DNA of 40,000 nucleotides from Nostoc sp. MG11 (GTDB lineage Bacteria > Cyanobacteriota > Cyanobacteriia > Cyanobacteriales > Nostocaceae), in NCBI RefSeq assembly GCF_014904695.1, contig NZ_JACXXN010000003.1:237405-277404 (forward strand), given 5' to 3'. Shown here piece after piece: positions 14,686 through 27,158 of the stretch (positions are counted from its first letter, which is position 1; each line of letters begins with the position of its first letter). The notes beneath the pieces were generated by a model. That model was not told where the DNA came from, did no database searches, and saw nothing but the letters and a program-made list of their open reading frames with translations. The position numbers were made by a program, and so were the translations under genes.

Positions 14686-14713
14686 CCTAGTCCCTAGTCC
14701 CCAGTCCCTAGCC
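14686..14713. repeat. STRR heptamer tract (cctagtc x2, cccagtc, cctagcc) overlapping the nifB stop
   Basis: Read directly. Resembles the classic CCCCAGT-type STRR. Confidence 0.8.
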
Positions 14714-16198
14714 TTTATTCCCTAGTCCTTCTACGTATTGCTCGTAAAACTCCAAAGCAACCTTCTCAATCACGTCGTAAGCTTCAATAGTCTGTATGCC
14801 AGCTTCTTGCAATTTTTCTTGAGGACAGTTGCCAATCTTGGAAACCAAAACTGCTTTGCAATCTGCGATCGCTTTCATAATATGCTCAAAAGTGGCTTCC
14901 TCACCGTATCCACCTTGACAATACTGGTCAATCTTGCGATGACTGACAAAGCGAACTTCGTTGCCCTCTACTTCGTAAATTTGGAATTCTTTGGCATGAC
15001 CGAAGTGCTGGTTAACCAATCCGCCGCCTTTGGTTGCTACTGCAACTAGGACTTTAGGATTGTTAGCAAATTTCTTGCCGACTAGCGCCTTTTCTTTGGC
15101 TACTTTAAGTTCTTCTTTAAACTTCTCAATACCTTCGTGTACTTCTTGACGCTTTTCGAGGTCATATTCTGGGGACATTTCCAAGAATTTATCTTTGCTA
15201 AATTCCTGGCTGCGGTCTTCTCCCAATAACCCGACTGCATCGGCTCGACACTGACGGCAATGGCGCATCATTTTCATATTGCCGGAGCAATTATCTTGAA
15301 CTTCTTTGAGTTCCTTGTTTGAAGGGCCGCGCTGACCGCTTAAGCCGAAGTGTGTGCCATGTTCCGGTGCAGAAATCAGCGGCATGATGTTGTGCAAAAA
15401 TGCCCCATTCTCACGAATGAATTTATTCACTTCCACCAAATGCTGGTCGTTAATTCCGGGAATCATCACCGAGTTGACTTTGCACAAGATGTCAGCTTCT
15501 TTTAAGGCTTGCAATCCTTCCATCTGCTTTTCGAGCAGAATCTTGGCTCCTTCCACACCTCTGTAACGCTTGCGTTTGTAGTGAACCCAGGAATAAATCT
15601 GTGCGCCGATTTCTGGGTCGATGGTGTTTAGGGTAATCGTAACGTGATCTATATTTAATTGTTTAATGCGATCAATGTGTTCGGTCAGCATTAAACCGTT
15701 GGTTGATAAACAAAGCTTGATATCCGGTGCTTTGTCTGCAATCAACTCAAATGTGCGGAAAGTCTTTTCTGGATTTGCCAATGGGTCGCCAGGGCCGGCA
15801 ATTCCCACAACTGTCATTTGGGGAATCTTACCTGCAATCACCAAAGCTTTGTGTGCTGCTTCTTCTGGTGTTAATAACTCGCTAACCACTCCCGGACGAC
15901 TTTCGTTAGCGCAGTCATATTTACGATTGCAATAGTTGCATTGAATGTTACAAGCTGGAGCAACTGCAACGTGCATCCTGGCGTAATGGTGATGGGCGTC
16001 TTCGCTGTAGCAGGGATGTTTAGCAATGCGTTCTTGGAGTTTTTCATCCCTTTCCACGGTGGCGCTGCTGGTGCTGTCGCAGCCGCAACCACCTGATTTT
16101 GCTGGGGTTGTCGTCGATTCCGTAGCGGGGGAGGTGAGGAGTCGTGTAGACGGTGATGTCATTGAATTTCGCAAAAGGTCGGTGGACTTGGCTGCCAC
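14708..16198 (-). CDS. nifB: Radical-SAM FeMo-cofactor biosynthesis protein NifB with a C-terminal NifX-like domain
   Basis: Radical SAM motif '[14 protein letters not shown]'. The C-terminal '[27 protein letters not shown]' is NifX-like. GTG start at 16198, with an alternative ATG at 16162. Confidence 0.95.
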
Positions 16199-16536
16199 TG
16201 TGGGAGATGCCGTTGCTCTTGTCTGTGCCTAGGAATTGAAGCCGCGTCTTATACCCACGCTGCCTACTAGAGCAAAGATGCCTGATGAGGGCGGCTGATT
16301 ACGTAGTAGGGCAGGCGATAAAATCATTGAGGTTCTGCTGGTGTGTGTCAACGGTTGGGTCTTGGGTAGAACTTATGTGTACAGCCGCGACTTCCATTCA
16401 CTTCAGGCATGGTGCTATCTCATCTCTCCACTCACTTTTAGCTGCTGGTGTTTGCCAGAGCGTTAAGTGATTGGCGATATAAGATTTATATCAGCCGTCC
16501 CCAAGGTCAGTGATATGTCTATCTAGGATAGAATTT

Positions 16537-16562
16537 ATTGGATTTATTAAGTTTGTACTCAA
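16537..16562 (-). promoter_or_regulatory. nifB-proximal copy of an extended box shared with the cysE/nifP upstream region
   Basis: Reads TTGAGTACAAACTTAATAAATCCAAT on the minus strand. Compare TTGAGTACAACCTTAAT(+9 nt)AAATCCAAT at 26275-26309 on the plus strand. Confidence 0.45.
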
Positions 16563-16680
16563 AATCCACAACCCTGATTGTGAAGGCATTAGATGAGTTG
16601 AAAAACTTTTTTTCGGGTGTGGGTTCTAGTGTTTTCTGGTTGGGGTTCGAGTATTTAGGGAGAGGGGTTCAGGATTTCTT

Positions 16681-16689
16681 TGTACTCAA
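16681..16689 (-). promoter_or_regulatory. Second TTGAGTACA copy upstream of nifB
   Basis: Exact 9-mer 'tgtactcaa' on the plus strand. Confidence 0.35.
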
Positions 16690-16751
16690 TTTAAACTCAA
16701 TATCAGCAGGGATTTCAGCCTACATTTAACTGTTCTGAGAGCATTCTAGTA

Positions 16752-16760
16752 TGTACTCAA
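16752..16760 (-). promoter_or_regulatory. Third TTGAGTACA copy upstream of nifB
   Basis: Exact 9-mer 'tgtactcaa' on the plus strand. Confidence 0.35.
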
Positions 16761-16765
16761 ATCAT

Positions 16766-16808
16766 CCTTAAATCCCGTTCAAAGCGACAACCGTCAAGGG
16801 ATTTAAGG
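16766..16808. repeat. Perfect 11-bp inverted repeat (ccttaaatccc / gggatttaagg) with a 21-nt spacer
   Basis: Read directly in the nifB upstream region. Confidence 0.7.
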
Positions 16809-16815
16809 GGAAAAA

Positions 16816-16844
16816 CTGGAGTAGGCTACGTCGTGCTACTCCAG
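16816..16844. repeat. Perfect 9-bp inverted repeat (ctggagtag / ctactccag) with an 11-nt loop
   Basis: Read directly, 8 nt from the previous hairpin. Confidence 0.7.
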
Positions 16845-17286
16845 ACACGTGCGAAATTCAATTCTGTATCTAACATATCATTTTTTTGCGAGGAAAAATG
16901 CAATTCATATTTTCTTAATTTTTGTCTTGATAATGACATTAAATTGCGCTTAGAAGCCTTGTCTGATAAGGCATATAAACTCCTTCAAAGAAATGCTTAA
17001 TGCATAATATTTGCAACTAATCTAATTTTAAACCTTTTTCTTCTCTTTGTTTTCTGCTAGCAAAGAGTGAAAGAATCCATCGCTCATAACATATAGATTA
17101 GGAAATTTTGAAAGCGTGAATGTCGGGTACAGCAAGACTTTTACCTCCTGCCTCCTGCCTCTTGCTATAACTGTGGAATTGAATACGCTCAGGCACAACT
17201 TATCATTGCATCAAGCTTTTGCCTGAACAGCAAAGGAGTATTTAGGCGTTCTGCTGCGGTAAATGCTTCTTAGAAAACGGAAGTTT

Positions 17287-17574
17287 TTAAATTGTGTCTG
17301 CTTCAAAAGGTTTAAGCAGGCGAAGCTGAGTGAAATAACGAAAATCTTCTGTATTTCGTGTTACCAAAGTTAAGTTATGCACTATGGCAGTTCCACTAAT
17401 AATGGCATCACCTAACGTTATTCTTCGCATGTGTCTTAGTAAAACTGCTTGCTCAAGAACTATTTGAGAAATTGGCACAACTTGAGTAACCTGAAAAAAC
17501 TGCTCAAAGTAAAGACGATCTGTTTGAGTTCGTCGATGATGTAGCAGGGAATAGGGAATATTTTGGAATCCAAC
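17287..17574 (-). pseudogene. N-terminally truncated PIN-domain (VapC-like) toxin remnant
   Basis: The C-terminal 'GDAIISGTAIVHNLTLVTRNTEDF' is a typical VapC C-terminus. The frame is open only back to an in-frame stop at 17575-17577. About 35-40 N-terminal residues, including the first acidic PIN residue, are missing, and there is no antitoxin gene. Confidence 0.6.
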
Positions 17575-17595
17575 TTACCAAATCGCCTCTTAAGC

Positions 17596-17937
17596 TTAAG
17601 CAACTGCGTAGCCCGTGTAGGGCCTTACTTCCGGTGAACGAAACCCAAGTACAATGTGGTTTTTAGGGATTCCAGCCCGTTCTAAATCGGCGGCAATGCC
17701 TTCTTCAGTCCCATCCCGTTGAATCCAGATTTTGCCATCAATCAGGTCAACATGAACCAGACAGCCATGAATACGGCGATCGCCATCCCAACCCACATCC
17801 ATCCACAAATAGCGATCGCGGGTTCGATCAAACACTACCTCCGACTGAATATCGGCATAGGAATAGGTAATTGAAGCATATTCACTCAGGATATTTTCAA
17901 TTACTTGGCGATAGTTGTCTAATTGGGTGTGATCCAT
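17596..17937 (-). CDS. xisI: XisI family protein (fdxN-element excision controlling factor-like)
   Basis: 113 aa. 'YLWMDVGWDGDRRIHGCLVHVDLIDGKIWIQRDGTEEGIA' matches the XisI family. Overlaps xisH by 19 nt. Confidence 0.85.
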   Translation of the reverse strand: MDHTQLDNYRQVIENILSEYASITYSYADIQSEVVFDRTRDRYLWMDVGWDGDRRIHGCLVHVDLIDGKIWIQRDGTEEGIAADLERAGIPKNHIVLGFRSPEVRPYTGYAVA

Positions 17938-18341
17938 TGTTTGATAACCTCCTGTTTTGAATCAAAGGTAATCAGCTTTAAACGTCGATTTTTCAGCAAA
18001 AGTTTGCCAATGGGTTCTTCAAACAAATCATCGAAGACGTTGCTAGGTATTGCAAGATATAACGCCCGCTCTGGCTCCAACTCAGTCAATATATCTTGAT
18101 ATAAAACATACTGACCCAACGCTTTCTCTAAATCATCAACATCCGATCTTCCAGTAAAACTTTTAATCTCAACTGCAATCTTACATTCTGCTTTCTCTGC
18201 CGCTAATAACTGTCTAGCACCTAGATCAACGTACAAGTCTTTTTTACCAAACTTAAGAGTTAGTGGGTCATGAGTAATTGTCCATTTGTCCTTAATCAAA
18301 GCATTTTTGACATTATTGTGATAAATGTCTCTAGCTGGCAT
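17919..18341 (-). CDS. xisH: XisH family protein (endonuclease-like fold)
   Basis: 140 aa. 'MPARDIYHNNVKNALIKDKWTITHDP' is the typical XisH N-terminus. A D...E-x-K arrangement is present ('LYVDLGA ... AVEIKSF'). Confidence 0.85.
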   Translation of the reverse strand: MPARDIYHNNVKNALIKDKWTITHDPLTLKFGKKDLYVDLGARQLLAAEKAECKIAVEIKSFTGRSDVDDLEKALGQYVLYQDILTELEPERALYLAIPSNVFDDLFEEPIGKLLLKNRRLKLITFDSKQEVIKQWITPN

Positions 18342-19529: not shown

Positions 19530-19630
19530 GGACACCGTGCAAGATGTTTCTGCAATAACTCTGAAATTTGGAAACATTACTCAACCTAGTGTATATACTC
19601 GTAGTCAAAATCTCAACAGACACGAGTATT

Positions 19631-22600
19631 ATGCTGGACTGGTTAGCTATTTGGGGTGTAACTCAGGCCGCCGGGTTGATTTTTAAACCCATTCTTGAAG
19701 ACTTAGCCAAGGATGCTGCTAAAGATTGGGCTAAAGATTTATTAAAAGGCATCCCTGGCAAGATTTTCCAGAAACTTAAGAAGGAAGATACAGAAATTGC
19801 TGCTGGTAAAGCATTAAAGGAATTTTTGCAACTCATGCAGCAGCAGCTAAAGGTTCGTTGCAAGCTTGGTGAGGTTGAAATTAAAGAGTACACCAAAGAC
19901 ATCAAGAAATTTATCAGCGAGAAGTCGGTTACAGAAATTCTGGGTAAGGCTTTTGATATTAATTGTGAATCTCTAGACGCTAAAACCCTAGAAGATAGTT
20001 GGAATAGGCTGCAATTAAAACCTCTGCCATCTAAGTTTAACTGGCAATCACTTACAGAACAGTATTTTACACAAGTCCAAGAACTTCTTTTAGATTCAAA
20101 AGAATTACACCATATCCTAGAATTACAAAAATTATCTGATATTGAAATAAATACAAAAGAAATTGCTGGTGTTGTTCCAGAGTTTAATTTAATTAAATAT
20201 CAAGAAGGAATCCGCGAACGGTATGGCAATCTTAAGTTAGATAGCTTAGATACTAGCGGCTATGCCTATAACGAACTGAAATTATGGCGAATTTTTACTG
20301 CTCAAAATGTTCGGGAAGCTCATCAGGTTTTAGCACAAGTTCACGAACTGCCTAAAGAACATCTGAGACGGCTGCGAGAATGTAACCAAATAGAAGCAGA
20401 AATTGAATTAGAAGAATTAGAACGCCACAAACGGGTTTATTTTGAACAGCCGATCCGTTCAGTATTAGATGTTATCAATGAAAAGCAAAATTATAAATAC
20501 ATCGTGATTTTGGGGGATCCTGGTTCAGGTAAGTCTACATTGTTGCAATTTCTGGCTTTGAATTGGGCAGAGTCCCCACTGGATAATGTTATCTCATTAC
20601 CGATTCCGTTGCTAATTGAGTTACGCACTTATATGCGACGACGGGAAGATAAAGAATGCAATAATTTTCTAGAATTCTTCCATAAGTGCAGTGGAACGAT
20701 TCATCATCTCAATCAGCATCAACTAGATGAACAACTAAAGGCGGGTAATGCTTTAGTGATGTTTGATGGTTTAGATGAGGTATTTGACTCTGGTAAACGA
20801 GAGGATGTAATTACAGATATTCATCGCTTTACTAATCAATATCAGAATGTGCAGGTGATTGTCACTTCTCGCATTATTGGCTATAAACCGCAACGATTGC
20901 GTGATGCTGAGTTTCGCCACTTCATATTACAAGATTTAGACTCAGAACAAATTCAGGATTTTATCAACCGTTGGCATGAGTTAACTTTTACCGATGCAGT
21001 TGATAAAGTTAGAAAACGGGAACGCCTGCAAAGAGGGATTGACACTTCCAAATCTATTGCAGAATTGGCGGGAAATCCTCTGCTGTTGACGATGATGGCA
21101 ATTCTTAATCGTAATCAGGAGCTACCAAGAGATAGAGCTACACTTTATGAACAAGCATCGCGGGTGTTGCTGCATCAATGGGATGTGGAACGCGCTTTGA
21201 TAGAAGATAAGAGGTTAGATCCCAAGACTATTGATTATAAAGATAAGCAAGCGATTCTGCGTCAGGTTGCTTATCTTATGCAAACTGGTGAGAAAGGTTT
21301 GGCAGGTAATTTGATTAATGAAAATGATTTAGTCAAAGTTCTGACTGATTATCTCAAAACCATAGAATTTGATAAACCTAGAGAAGTTGCGAAGGTGATG
21401 ATTAATCAACTGCGGACTCGCAACTTTATGTTATGTTTCTTGGGTGCGGATTATTATGCTTTTGTGCATCGGACATTTTTAGAATATTTCTGTGCTTGGG
21501 AGTTTGTCTGGCAGTTTAAAGAAACGCAAACGCTGACTATTGAGAAACTTAAGAATGAAGTTTTTGGCAAGCACTGGCAGGATGAAAGTTGGCATGAGGT
21601 CTTGCTACTAATTGCAGGAATGATTGAGCCAAGATTTGTTGGGGAGATTCTTGATTATTTAATGGCGCAAGATGGCGAAGAGGAAAAGTTTGTCAATCTC
21701 TTTTTAGCGGCTAAGTGTCTTGTAGAGGTGAGAAATCGCTCGGCGATCGCGTCAACGGCTAATAAATTACTTAATAAGCTTAAAGACTTAACTAAATATG
21801 ACCTCTGGTACTATTACGTCCTGTATCACGATGAAGAAGAAACTAAGCTAGTTCAGGAAATTCGCACTCAAGCAGTCACAGCAATTGCAACGACTTGGCA
21901 AGAATCTCTTGATACCAAAACCTGGCTCAAAGAACGCGCTACTCAAGATGATAGTGCCAGTGTGCGACGTGCAGCAGTTCAAGAATTAGCCCAGAATTTC
22001 AAAGATGACCTCGACACCAAAACCTGGCTCAAACAACGTGCTACCCATGATAATAGCTGGTATGTGCGACGTGTAGTAGTCCAAGAATTAGCCCAGAATT
22101 TCAAAGATGACCCCGATACCAAATCTATCCTCAAAGAACGTGCTACCCAGGATGATAATGCGAGTGTGCGACGTACAGCAGTAGAAGAATTAGCCCAGAA
22201 CTTCAAAGATGACCCCAACACCAAATCCATCCTTAAAGAACGTGCTACCCAAGATGATAACGAAGATGTGCGAGGTGTAGCAGTTCAAGAATTAGCCAAG
22301 AACTTCAAAGATGACCCTGATACCAAATCCATCCTCAAAGAACGCGTTACCAAAGATGATAGTCCAAGCGTACAACTTCTAGCAGTCCAAGAATTAGCCC
22401 AAAACTTCAAAGATGACCCCGACTCCAAAAACTGGCTCAAAGAACGCGCTACCAAGGATGATAACTGGTATGTGCGACGTGCAGCAGTCCTAGAATTAGC
22501 CCAGAACTTCAAAGATGACCCCGATATCAAATCCATCCTTAAAGAACGTGCTACCAAGGATGATAACGAAGATGTCCGAGGTGTAGCAGTCCAAGAATTA

Positions 22601-23560
22601 GCCCAAAACTTCAAAGATGACCCCGACACCAAAACCTGGCTCAAAGAACGTGCTACCAAGGATGATAGCCCAAGCGTGCAACTTCTAGCAGTCCAAGAAT
22701 TAGCCCAGAACTTCAAAGATGACCCCAACACCAAAACCTGGCTCAAAGAACGCGCTACCAAGGATGATAACTGGTATGTTCGACGTGTAGCAGTAGAAGA
22801 ATTAGCCCAGAACTTCAAAGATGACCCCGACACCAAATCCATTCTTAAAGAACGCGCTACCCAAGATGATGACAACGATGTGCGACGTACAGCAGTCCAA
22901 AAATTAGCTCAGAACTTCAAAGATGACCCCGATACCAAATCCATCCTCAAAGAACGCACTACCCAAGATGATAACGAAGATGTCCGAGGTTTAGCAGTCC
23001 AAAAATTAGCTCAGAACTTCAAAGATGACCCCGACACCAAATCCATCCTCAAAGCACTCGCTACCCAGGATGATAACAACTATGTGCGAGGTGCAGCAGT
23101 AGAAGAATTAGCCCAGAATTTCAAAGATGATCCCGACACCAAATCCATTCTCAAAGAACGTGCTACCAAGGATGATGACTATGTGCGAGGTACAGCAATA
23201 GAAGAATTAGCTCAAAATTTCAAAGATGATCCCGACACCAAATCCATCCTCAAAGAACGCGCTACCCAGGATGATAACTGGTATGTGCGACGTGTAGCAG
23301 TCGAAGAATTAGCTAAACACTTTAAATATTACGCTGATTTGTTTGACATCTACTACCAGTGCGCTGTTAATGACCCCTTTAAGGATAGCCATAATCCTCC
23401 CTATAACCCCAACCCTCGGCGCATTGCACTAGAGATAATTATCAAGCAATTTCCTCAGCATCCCCAGACTTTACCACTGTTGCGCGATCGCGCCAAAAAT
23501 GACCCAGATGAGCAAGTGCGGGAATTTGCTCAGAAGAAGTTAAAGCAGTTGGAAGGGTAA
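19631..23560 (+). CDS. NACHT-domain STAND NTPase with an unassigned N-terminal module and 14 C-terminal HEAT-like repeats
   Basis: Walker A 'ILGDPGSGKSTLL', Walker B 'LVMFDGLDEV' and 'VIVTSRIIGY'. The C-terminus carries the repeat motif 'DDxxxVRRxAVxELAQNFKDDPDTKSILKERA'. I prefer the ATG at 19631; the track ORF starts at a TTG at 19568. Confidence 0.85.
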   Translation: MLDWLAIWGVTQAAGLIFKPILEDLAKDAAKDWAKDLLKGIPGKIFQKLKKEDTEIAAGKALKEFLQLMQQQLKVRCKLGEVEIKEYTKDIKKFISEKSVTEILGKAFDINCESLDAKTLEDSWNRLQLKPLPSKFNWQSLTEQYFTQVQELLLDSKELHHILELQKLSDIEINTKEIAGVVPEFNLIKYQEGIRERYGNLKLDSLDTSGYAYNELKLWRIFTAQNVREAHQVLAQVHELPKEHLRRLRECNQIEAEIELEELERHKRVYFEQPIRSVLDVINEKQNYKYIVILGDPGSGKSTLLQFLALNWAESPLDNVISLPIPLLIELRTYMRRREDKECNNFLEFFHKCSGTIHHLNQHQLDEQLKAGNALVMFDGLDEVFDSGKREDVITDIHRFTNQYQNVQVIVTSRIIGYKPQRLRDAEFRHFILQDLDSEQIQDFINRWHELTFTDAVDKVRKRERLQRGIDTSKSIAELAGNPLLLTMMAILNRNQELPRDRATLYEQASRVLLHQWDVERALIEDKRLDPKTIDYKDKQAILRQVAYLMQTGEKGLAGNLINENDLVKVLTDYLKTIEFDKPREVAKVMINQLRTRNFMLCFLGADYYAFVHRTFLEYFCAWEFVWQFKETQTLTIEKLKNEVFGKHWQDESWHEVLLLIAGMIEPRFVGEILDYLMAQDGEEEKFVNLFLAAKCLVEVRNRSAIASTANKLLNKLKDLTKYDLWYYYVLYHDEEETKLVQEIRTQAVTAIATTWQESLDTKTWLKERATQDDSASVRRAAVQELAQNFKDDLDTKTWLKQRATHDNSWYVRRVVVQELAQNFKDDPDTKSILKERATQDDNASVRRTAVEELAQNFKDDPNTKSILKERATQDDNEDVRGVAVQELAKNFKDDPDTKSILKERVTKDDSPSVQLLAVQELAQNFKDDPDSKNWLKERATKDDNWYVRRAAVLELAQNFKDDPDIKSILKERATKDDNEDVRGVAVQELAQNFKDDPDTKTWLKERATKDDSPSVQLLAVQELAQNFKDDPNTKTWLKERATKDDNWYVRRVAVEELAQNFKDDPDTKSILKERATQDDDNDVRRTAVQKLAQNFKDDPDTKSILKERTTQDDNEDVRGLAVQKLAQNFKDDPDTKSILKALATQDDNNYVRGAAVEELAQNFKDDPDTKSILKERATKDDDYVRGTAIEELAQNFKDDPDTKSILKERATQDDNWYVRRVAVEELAKHFKYYADLFDIYYQCAVNDPFKDSHNPPYNPNPRRIALEIIIKQFPQHPQTLPLLRDRAKNDPDEQVREFAQKKLKQLEG
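21911..23335 (+). repeat. 14 tandem 102-bp (34-codon) intragenic repeats; one unit is 99 bp
   Basis: Unit starts fall at 21911, 22013, 22115 and so on every 102 bp to 23135, then at 23234, each checked against the D/N-T-K codons. Units are near-identical at the DNA level. Confidence 0.9.
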
Positions 23561-24313: not shown

Positions 24314-24757
24314 GTGTCTCGCTCATATATTAATGCAGAACTGCGGCGTTTAGTTGCCGATCGCGCTGATCATATTTGTGAATACTGTCTCGTCTCTGAA
24401 GTAGATAGATCATCGGGTTGTCAAGTTGACCATATCATCAGCGTGAAACACGGCGGCACTACAGTAGCAGATAATCTCTGCTATGCCTGTATTTTCTGTA
24501 ACTTGCAAAAAGGCACGGATTTGGGGTCAATTAATTGGCAAACTGGCGAACTTGTGCGGTTTTTTAACCCACGCAGAGACTTTTGGGGCGATCATTTTCG
24601 ACTAGATGAGGCTGTAATTCAGCATCAAACAGATATCGGTGAAGTGACTGCACGTATCCTAGATTTTAACAGCGATGAAAGGCTTCTAGAGCGACAAGCT
24701 TTGATTACATCTGATCAGTATCCCTCAGCATCAGCACTAAAACAGATCAATAAATAG
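24314..24757 (+). CDS. HNH endonuclease
   Basis: 147 aa with a GTG start. 'CEYC...CQVDHIISVKHGGTTVADNLCYACIFCNLQKG' gives the HNH catalytic core with two CxxC zinc pairs. Confidence 0.85.
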   Translation: MSRSYINAELRRLVADRADHICEYCLVSEVDRSSGCQVDHIISVKHGGTTVADNLCYACIFCNLQKGTDLGSINWQTGELVRFFNPRRDFWGDHFRLDEAVIQHQTDIGEVTARILDFNSDERLLERQALITSDQYPSASALKQINK

Positions 24758-25727: not shown

Positions 25728-26274
25728 CGAAGATTGAAATGTTTAGCCCTGCCAAAGGTTATTCGGGGCTATACAGACAAAACCCATCTTCGTGGGTTTC
25801 AAATTCTTTGAGTCCGCGCAGGCGGACTTTGTTTGTGTAGCCGCGATTTCTAATCGCCAGGTATATTTGCAAAAGTGAGATGCTTCCCTTCCACACACCA
25901 ATAGAATAAAATATTTACTATGAGCTATAGCTATATTTAGAAACGTATGCATACATACAGACAGCAAATCCTAAAAGAAAATAAAGAAACTTGTTTTTTG
26001 CAGAGCTAAATAATAAGATAATAATAGTAATACGATATACAGAATATTGATTTTTAGCTTCATCTACCTCATATTTGAGTGCATCTGAGTACAGCTTAAT
26101 ATATTGCAAAATATCTTGCTTAAATGTTTTCAAAGTCTTACAGGTAAAGTTTCTTGTAGCGAGTACAGAAATTCTTAAACCCTATCCCAAAAATACTAGT
26201 ACCCCCATCATTAAACACTAGCACCCCTACCCCAAGACAAATTTTAAATTTATGTTAAGTCGGGGTTTGGGCGC

Positions 26275-26309
26275 TTGAGTACAACCTTAATCAATTCAAT
26301 AAATCCAAT
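26275..26309 (+). promoter_or_regulatory. cysE/nifP-proximal copy of the box shared with nifB
   Basis: TTGAGTACAACCTTAATCAATTCAATAAATCCAAT, ending 88 nt upstream of the cysE ATG. Confidence 0.45.
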
Positions 26310-26396
26310 CGACATTGGGTTTGCTGTCTAGTTGGAAGTCGCCTGCTATAAGCATAAAAATAGCACATGGCTCTTTTAACCAGATAGACAGTACCG

Positions 26397-27158
26397 ATGC
26401 AACAGTCCTTTGACAGTATCAGCGATCGCCAGACTATCAAAACGCAGGATTCTGCACATACATCCCTGCTGAAAAATCTCCTCTCTGGCGTTTTTTTTGA
26501 GCCATTATTGAGTGATTTTCGCATTATTTTTGAGCGCGATCCAGCAGCACGTAATTGGTTAGAAGTCGTGTTTTGCTACCCTGGATTCCACGCATTATGT
26601 TTGCATCGTCTCGCTCACTGGTTACACCGTCGAGGAGTGGGTTTCATCCCTCGCTTAATTTCTCATATCGGGCGGTTTTTGACAGGAATTGAAATTCACC
26701 CAGGTGCAGAGATTGGTAAAGGTGTGTTTATCGACCACGGGATGGGTGTTGTCATTGGTGAAACTGCGATCGTGGGAGACTATACACTGATTTACCAAGG
26801 CGTCACCCTTGGCGGGACTGGGAAAGAAAGCGGAAAGCGTCATCCCACCGTGGGTAAAAACGTTGTGATAGGCGCGGGTGCAAAGGTTTTAGGAAATATA
26901 CAAATTGGCGATCGCGTCCGTATTGGTGCTGGCTCAATTGTTTTACGCCAAGTCCCCAGCGATCGCACTGTTGTAGGGGTTCCGGGGCGGATTATTTCCC
27001 GCAATGACGCCAGTCTCAGTCCCCTAGAGCACGGAAAACTACCCGATTTAGAAGCAACTGTGATTAGCTCGTTGCTCTCGCGCATTGAGCAACTTGAACA
27101 ACAACTACAAACCTTAAGAGTCAAGAGTCAAGAGTCAAAAGTCAAAAGTCAAAATTAA
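26397..27158 (+). CDS. cysE: Serine O-acetyltransferase (nif-cluster CysE paralogue, NifP-like)
   Basis: 253 aa. Hexapeptide-repeat transferase with '[28 protein letters not shown]' and 'GKRHPTVG'. It heads the nifV-Z-T block, like alr1404 of PCC 7120 (from memory). Confidence 0.9.
27116..27150. repeat. STRR heptamer tract (aagagtc x3, aaaagtc x2) forming the cysE C-terminal codons
   Basis: Translates in the cysE frame to '[12 protein letters not shown]'. Confidence 0.85.

Follow-up and report, generated by a model that had tools for sequence, protein, structure and literature searches.

The 40-kilobase (kb) window analysed here, a stretch of contig NZ_JACXXN010000003.1 from Nostoc sp. MG11, is a heterocystous-type nif region. 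Its minus strand carries nifB, fdxN, nifS, nifU and nifH, followed by further open reading frames (ORFs) downstream, and its plus strand carries cysE/nifP (26397-27158), an asr1405-family gene, nifV and nifZ; the closest match to the encoded NifB (97%) comes from an aff. Roholtiella strain. Our subject is the DNA upstream of nifB, in which a preliminary description of the sequence had pointed out three copies of a 9-nucleotide (nt) box, TTGAGTACA. All three proved to be exact and to lie on the minus strand, in nifB sense (16554-16562, 16681-16689 and 16752-16760), and a fourth exact copy lies on the plus strand upstream of cysE/nifP, sense to nifP (26275-26283). The 9-mer is expected 0.36 times per 40 kb counting both strands, and none of 100 shuffles contained at least four copies. 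The four exact copies in the 40 kb thus all fall within two nif promoter regions. With one mismatch allowed the window holds 13 matches, which is the chance level, and two of these (26075 and 26085) also lie in the nifP upstream region.

Two collinear modules upstream of nifB and nifP

Read in nifB sense, the window presents box 1A, 71 nt, box 1B, motifs 2A and 2B (AAATACTNGNACCCC, 22 nt apart), an A/T tract, box 1C and an extended -10 element, in that order. The individual features are as follows.

16752-16760, minus strand: box 1A, the distal TTGAGTACA, an exact match at about -281 from the predicted start; an orthologous box is present in 52 cyanobacterial loci
16681-16689, minus strand: box 1B, TTGAGTACAAAGAAATCCTGAACCCC, at about -210 and 71 nt downstream of 1A; the 1A-1B distance is 70-73 nt in 52 of 52 loci
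16642-16657, minus strand: motif 2A, TAAATACTCGAACCCC, A/C-rich, 32 nt past the start of 1B; a conserved alignment block, at +31/+32 in nearly all loci
16615-16636, minus strand: motif 2B, GAAAACACTAGAACCCACACCC, 54 nt past the start of 1B and 22 nt from 2A; conserved in relatives
16601-16614, minus strand: A-tract/T-tract, GAAAAAAAGTTTTT, between 2B and 1C; alignment columns 190-207, conserved
16526-16563, minus strand: box 1C with its conserved extension, TTTGAGTACAAACTTAATAAATCCAATAAATTCTATCC, at about -85 to -48
16485-16493, minus strand: extended -10 element, TGATATAAA, with no -35 (TG at 16493-92, hexamer at 16490-85), 71 nt past the start of 1C
16163-16478, minus strand: predicted nifB transcription start at A16478, placed from the -10 element, and long 5' leader up to ATG 16162
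14708-16198, minus strand: nifB as its longest ORF (NCBIfam TIGR01290, E = 7.5e-201)

Box 1C is followed by a 30-nt AT-rich extension, and the tract between 2B and 1C appears in the alignment as a conserved A7-G-T5 run that may have a role in DNA bending. A sigma-70 promoter scan returned no -35/-10 pair at the nifB extended -10; the scan is silent on promoters of this kind because they have no -35. From the -10 element, transcription of nifB is predicted to start near 16478, which would give a leader of 280 nt to GTG 16198 or 316 nt to ATG 16162. These predicted lengths compare with the 5' ends that have been mapped for nifB in relatives, at -282 in PCC 7120, -296 in Nodularia and -328 in Anabaena variabilis.

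The choice of start codon affects the distance of the boxes from the gene. The preliminary description had placed them 354-560 nt upstream of the nifB start, and from GTG 16198 this is approximately correct (356-562 nt). We consider ATG 16162 the more likely start, because NifB homologs are annotated at 477-489 amino acids (94-97% of the 496-residue window ORF) and because the nucleotide blocks conserved between the GTG and the ATG do not keep one reading frame from species to species. In Cylindrospermum PCC 7417, nifB begins at the ATG equivalent to 16162. With ATG 16162 as the start, the boxes therefore lie 392-598 nt upstream of the start codon.

The leader itself (16163-16478, minus strand) contains blocks that are nearly invariant across Nostocales. 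RNAalifold predicts nested long-range helices, in which GUGGAGGGAUG pairs with CAUCUCCCAC just before the start codon and GAAGUCGC pairs with GCGRCUUC, together with a 5' hairpin that shows a few compensatory changes; the single-sequence fold has z = -2.15. Covariation support for these helices is weak because most pairs are invariant, and an Rfam scan of 16000-17700 at E<=1 returned no family.

A complete second module, again oriented in the sense of its gene, precedes nifP.

26086-26093, plus strand: nifP box 1A, TGAGTACA, with a near-copy, TTGAGTGCA, at 26075-83
26160-26167, plus strand: nifP box 1B, CGAGTACA, 74 nt past 1A
26189-26233, plus strand: nifP motifs 2A (26189-26206) and 2B (26212-26233), collinear with the nifB module
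26275-26310, plus strand: nifP box 1C and its extension, with the 8-mer at 26276, 116 nt past 1B
26344-26352, plus strand: nifP extended -10 element, TGCTATAAG (hexamer 26347-52), 71 nt past the start of 1C

Its spacings of 74, 116 and 71 nt predict a nifP start at about 26359, 38 nt before ATG 26397, in agreement with the start mapped at -33/-34 in A. variabilis. Of this module, the preliminary description had mentioned the proximal box only. The nifB and nifP modules of the window align collinearly except for a gap of 10 nt between 2B and 1C. The preliminary description had extended the proximal nifB box to 26 nt and had matched it to the nifP box with one mismatch and a 9-nt insertion. The extension is real and forms part of the 1C feature listed above, whereas the insertion does not belong to the best alignment: without gaps, the two 1C regions share 31 of 36 positions (counted by eye), with 71 nt to the -10 element in both, and the apparent insertion is an artefact of an internal AATAAATYC repeat. 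Close to the nifP module we also observed that the one-mismatch extra box TTGAGTGCA (26075-26083) abuts box 1A, and that two NtcA-like GTA-N8-TAC matches (25945-25958 and 26027-26040, plus strand) lie just upstream; across the window, such matches occur at chance level.

To place the boxes in a wider context, we collected 80 nifB loci, one genome per species, of which 66 are cyanobacterial and 14 are not, and searched the sense strand for triplets of TGAGTACA with one mismatch allowed. A triplet with conserved geometry was found upstream of nifB in 52 of the 66 cyanobacterial loci and in none of the 14 non-cyanobacterial loci. Across these 52 loci, 1A and 1B are 70-73 nt apart, 1B and 1C are either 114-117 or 124-129 nt apart, and every locus has a TGNTATAA extended -10 with its hexamer 68-72 nt past the start of 1C; 2A lies at +31/32 and 2B at +53/54 from 1B. 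The nifB module of the window has the modal values (71, 127 and 71 nt, with 2A at +32 and 2B at +54). In an alignment of 28 sequences, the window and 27 relatives, each of the three boxes contains invariant columns, as do 2A/2B, the 1C extension, CTGnTATAAA and the first transcribed bases. The 8-mer TGAGTACA occurs in 151 sense copies in the 51 kb directly upstream of nifB, whereas nifB and the DNA downstream of it, 289 kb in all, contain 5 copies when both strands are counted; per strand, the upstream DNA is enriched about 340-fold. On the sense strand, the 8-mer is missing from all 14 non-cyanobacterial loci. The preliminary description had recommended a phylogenetic footprint and had allowed that the boxes might be absent from relatives or belong to a dispersed repeat; instead, the 52 loci keep the triplet in the same geometry, and in the DNA examined the 8-mer shows no sign of dispersal.

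In 16 loci a second, oppositely oriented triplet lies further upstream of nifB, which we read as the module of a putative divergent gene (nifP in Leptolyngbya boryana). The two 1B-1C classes are both represented in the window, with nifB in the long class and nifP in the short one, and the 1A-1B and 1C-to-(-10) distances are both about 71 nt. We met no statement of the two classes or of the shared spacing of about 71 nt in the literature examined.

Identity of the boxes and the protein that reads them

Repeats of the form TGAGTACA(A), designated 1A/1B/1C or CS1-3, are described upstream of cyanobacterial nifB and nifP promoters (PMC8510180; bioRxiv 10.1101/2025.04.01.646610). Accounts of the region exist for A. 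variabilis, L. boryana and Nostoc 7120 and link it to the activator CnfR/PatB. Between 1B and 1C it contains 2A and 2B, two motifs rich in A and C, and both nifB promoters combine an extended -10 with the lack of a -35. The region is needed for transcription of nifB, and hence of the whole nif cluster, in micro-oxic heterocysts. Given this correspondence, we are highly confident that the three boxes upstream of nifB in the window are motifs 1A/1B/1C of the upstream activating region that is conserved at cyanobacterial nifB promoters. The window element is an ordinary ortholog of the already known CnfR-type nifB/nifP cis-regulatory module. The preliminary description had suggested that they serve as activator or promoter elements for a nifB gene that depends on CnfR and has a long leader. 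This agrees with the literature on orthologous sequences and with the footprint; as an interpretation, it is not new.

Functional data come from relatives. In A. variabilis, nifB1 transcription drops to about half when either 1A or 1B is lost (Vernon et al. 2017, as relayed in bioRxiv 10.1101/2025.04.01.646610 and PMC8510180), and for nifP of that organism lowered expression is reported for changes in 1A and in the region upstream of 1B. For L. boryana, a heterologous assay in Synechocystis showed that activation by CnfR requires 2A/2B and depends little on 1B (Tsujimoto, Kamiya and Fujita 2016, as summarized in a citing paper). Purified CnfR binds Nostoc 7120 fragments bearing these regions, and the bound fragments included both motif types (Rachedi et al. 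2023, also as summarized in a citing paper).

How might boxes so far from the predicted start (about -83, -210 and -281) act on RNA polymerase? Each of the two promoters in the window has its own sense-oriented module, which amounts to orientation-dependence. Direct contact over such distances would require the DNA to bend or wrap. The two classes of 1B-1C distance (about 116 and about 127 nt) are approximately one helical turn (about 11 nt) apart and are phase-coherent, with a resultant of 0.80 at 10.5 base pairs (bp) per turn and a mean phase of 0.07 turn; 1A and 1B are also near in phase. The boxes would then lie roughly on one face of the helix, and a bent or wrapped nucleoprotein complex could deliver the activator to RNA polymerase at a promoter that has no -35. 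The reverse complements of 2A (cGAGTAt) and 2B (cTAGTAt) share a GAGTA/TAGTA core with the boxes, so that a single DNA-binding domain could read both motif types and, in principle, five sites in two orientations.

Several points weigh against assigning the boxes to CnfR without qualification. No cnfR lies in the 40-kb window, where the ORFs scanned include no protein that combines a ferredoxin with an XRE domain; that the host organism has the activator is therefore an assumption. In Nostoc 7120, patB is likewise far from nifB. The nifB start from which the positions are counted is itself predicted from its -10 element. The primary CnfR site may also lie elsewhere, with the boxes playing an auxiliary or context-dependent part, because a change in 1B had little effect in the L. 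boryana/Synechocystis assay and the effects of the boxes at nifP differ. With 2A/2B essential there and 1B not, the boxes may be contacted by CnfR itself or by another factor.

The last of these points is taken furthest by a model in which CnfR reads 2A/2B and leaves the TGAGTACA boxes untouched, the boxes being sites for a second factor or architectural sites for phasing or bending. The unequal importance of 2A/2B and 1B in the L. boryana data is what would be seen in that case, and the box effects that differ between nifB1 and nifP, together with spacing and phase that are strictly kept (71, 116 or 127, 71 nt), point in the same direction. We nevertheless regard this model as unlikely: in the A. 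variabilis accounts nifB1 transcription is halved by the loss of 1A or 1B, the GAGTA core common to the boxes and to the reverse complements of 2A/2B fits a single reader, and the CnfR-binding fragments, as summarized, contained both motif types.

Far less probable is a reading in which NtcA, or some other known heterocyst regulator, binds the boxes and they do not belong to a CnfR module. Expression of nif is indirectly dependent on NtcA, and TGAGTACA contains GTAC; however, the boxes lie at about -83, -210 and -281 and not at the -41.5 of NtcA-activated promoters, and the module is also conserved in non-heterocystous strains. A candidate NtcA-activated promoter at nifB was rejected, there being no GTA-N8-TAC between 16450 and 16800. 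That the boxes are copies of a short dispersed repeat, or have clustered by chance without any connection to nif regulation, we hold to be next to impossible. Short dispersed repeats are abundant in cyanobacterial genomes, and the 9-mer with one mismatch occurs in the window at chance frequency, but all four exact copies fall in the two nif promoter regions, the position, orientation and spacing of the boxes are orthologous in 52 species, the adjacent 289 kb hold 5 copies of the 8-mer, and a repeat search of the window found no longer unit around the boxes. An identity as STRR, HIP1 or MITE-like repeats is effectively refuted by the same observations: four copies in 40 kb, in nif promoters only, without a longer unit.

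The CnfR-type module thus represents an experimentally defined nifB/nifP control motif that was recovered by reading sequence only and that holds across more than 50 cyanobacterial species. It can be used to annotate nif promoters and to design portable CnfR-controlled expression cassettes. For modelling how CnfR acts from 80-280 bp upstream of a promoter with no -35, the spacings of about 71 nt, the two 1B-1C classes and the shared GAGTA core may be useful.

A candidate small RNA upstream of box 1A

Outside the known module, further upstream of nifB, the window contains a unit in which an A-run is followed by TGATATGTT, seven bases, ACAGAATTGAATTTCGCA, a 9-bp hairpin and a T-run.

16811-16880, minus strand: candidate small RNA gene, with extended -10 TGATATGTT at 16880-72, 5' end at about 16867-65 and seed AUUGAAUUUCGCA at 16862-50
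16844-36/16824-16, minus strand: 9-bp hairpin of the candidate RNA terminator, followed by a T-run (U5, 16815-11)
16160-16173, minus strand: nifB translation-initiation region, UGCGAAAUUCAAUG, the exact complement of the candidate RNA seed

The seed and the start region form a perfect 13-nt inverted repeat, in which ATTGAATTTCGCA (16862-16850, nifB sense) complements TGCGAAATTCAAT(G) (16173-16161); the window contains no further exact copy. We propose as a candidate that the unit encodes a small RNA, about 55 nt long, whose 5' part carries the seed and which ends at an intrinsic terminator.

About 30 Nostocales loci carry the unit, conserved at 110-113 nt upstream of box 1A, and it also occurs in several non-heterocystous strains. 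Its TGATATGTT follows the conservation pattern TGnTAnnnT, typical of an extended -10. Across 30 sequences, 96% of the cells in the hairpin pair, and the one-sided changes comprise 20 G-U wobble cells on the nifB-sense strand, which on the opposite strand would be mismatches. A terminator scan was silent on this hairpin (16844-16816) because its loop exceeds 8 nt. In Cylindrospermum PCC 7417 the upstream gene is divergent, so that the terminator does not serve a co-directional gene upstream.

Complementarity to the nifB start region follows the element across species. In 24 loci, the longest complement (12-15 nt) to positions -20 to +6 of nifB within 1.5 kb upstream is the candidate element, compared with at most 10 nt in all but one of the control regions (the remaining one had 13 nt). 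Compensatory changes in seed and start region occur in at least seven loci from at least six lineages: AGCG with CGCU (loci L017 and L036), CCG with CGG (L037), ACCG with CGGU (L057), ACCACGGAAUUUCA with UGAAAUUCCGUGGU (L038), CACGGAAUUCAAU with AUUGAAUUCCGUG (L050) and UCCGGAAAUUCAUUC with GAAUGAAUUCCGGA (L034). Cognate duplexes have a median energy of -16.9 kcal/mol compared with -5.1 +/- 2.2 for shuffled seeds. When seeds and targets were permuted among loci, the mean was -11.7 +/- 0.34 compared with -14.1 for cognate pairs, and none of 20000 permutations reached the observed value.

Some evidence runs counter to the small RNA. The complementarity is weakened in one Nostoc subclade (L002-L005 and L010) and lost in a few other loci, and a weak 5' hairpin may partly cover the seed. 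RNA sequencing in PCC 7120 gave no reads upstream of the -282 end, from a library not made for 55-nt RNAs, and the Rfam scan of 16000-17700 likewise held no match to the element. The inverted repeat could alternatively mask the nifB start by folding back in read-through transcripts, or serve in a DNA inversion of the nifB promoter; xisH and xisI lie just upstream in the window. Weighing these points, we consider the chances that a functional RNA pairs at the nifB start to be about even, and that the candidate RNA is both real and unreported to be rather doubtful. No small RNA targeting nifB in cyanobacteria was found in the searchable full-text literature. An unnamed predicted small RNA of PCC 7120, 1795979r (99 nt, 30 homologs and a nif-like distribution; PMC4734099, Table S3), could not be tied to the element; it may be either the candidate element or nifB's own start. 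Cylindrospermum PCC 7417 carries both the candidate element and the nifB leader, so it does not discriminate between these identities.

Tentatively, the known module would then be one half of nifB control, and the other would be the RNA of about 55 nt, predicted to pair with the start codon and the 10 nt before it and thereby to gate translation. If true, the first gene of the nitrogenase cluster would also be controlled post-transcriptionally, which would gate cofactor synthesis and, for example, silence leaky nifB transcripts outside heterocysts.

Between the candidate terminator and box 1A lies a perfect 11-nt palindrome, CCTTAAATCCC-N21-GGGATTTAAGG (16808-16798/16776-16766, minus strand). 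Some species keep its complementarity with changed bases, and only 53-67% of cells pair overall; it could be a second hairpin or a protein site.

The wider surroundings hold several genes and repeats besides. About 0.7 kb upstream of the nifB control region and on the same strand are xisI and xisH (17596-18341, minus strand; Pfam XisI, E = 3e-44, and XisH, E = 1e-54). Despite their proximity, the window shows no sign of an interruption in fdxN or nifD, and the ORFs scanned in it included no xisF-type recombinase. Short tandem repeats of the CCTCCTGCC type (about 17145-17165) occur in the long non-coding stretch that separates xisI from the nifB control region. Two genes unrelated to nif lie between the nifB and nifP promoters, one encoding a 1330-residue NACHT/HEAT-repeat STAND protein (19568-23560, plus strand) and the other a small HNH endonuclease (24314-24757, plus strand).

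Comparison with known nif control regions

NtcA class II promoters carry GTA-N8-TAC at -41.5. They resemble the nifB promoter of the window in being nitrogen-regulated cyanobacterial promoters with no -35, but the latter has no NtcA box, and its boxes are much further upstream. In proteobacterial nif operons, the NifA upstream activator sequences are TGT-N10-ACA and accompany sigma-54 promoters. The outline is similar, in that an oxygen-responsive activator acts from 100-300 bp upstream of a nif promoter that is unable to fire alone. The two systems differ in sequence, sigma factor and promoter type, and in their activators, CnfR having an XRE-type helix-turn-helix and a ferredoxin-like domain whereas NifA is an AAA+ enhancer-binding protein; the window element is not a member of the NifA family of sites.

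Much closer is the cis-element in the nifB-nifP intergenic region of L. boryana (motifs I-IX; Tsujimoto, Kamiya and Fujita 2016, as summarized in citing papers), which has the same motif types in the same order. The non-heterocystous relatives in our set also have the triplet with 2A/2B and the extended -10. They differ from the window in that their two modules share one divergent intergenic region and in that 1B-1C at nifB is mostly 114-117 nt compared with 127 nt in the window; the exceptions, at 126-129 nt, are an Oscillatoriales metagenome-assembled genome, Dapis and Trichodesmium. A further difference lies in the L. boryana result that 2A/2B, and not 1B, are essential there.

The closest counterpart is A. 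variabilis ATCC 29413 (Vernon, Pratte and Thiel 2017; Pratte and Thiel 2021, PMC8510180; bioRxiv 10.1101/2025.04.01.646610), in which the motifs have been tested by mutation, whereas those of the window are known from sequence. The nifP gene of the window is on the opposite strand to nifB, about 10 kb upstream of it, and not about 11 kb past the 3' end of the cluster; nifD in the window is free of an interrupting excision element. A. variabilis has the same 8-mer, TGAGTACA(A), in three sense copies, with motifs 1A/1B/1C upstream of nifB1, nifB2 and nifP, and the window shares the nifP module as well. The likeness extends to the A/C-rich 2A/2B between 1B and 1C, to the extended -10 without a -35 and to the long leader, as well as to the gene contexts nifB-fdxN-nifS-nifU-nifH and nifP-asr1405-like-nifV-nifZ.

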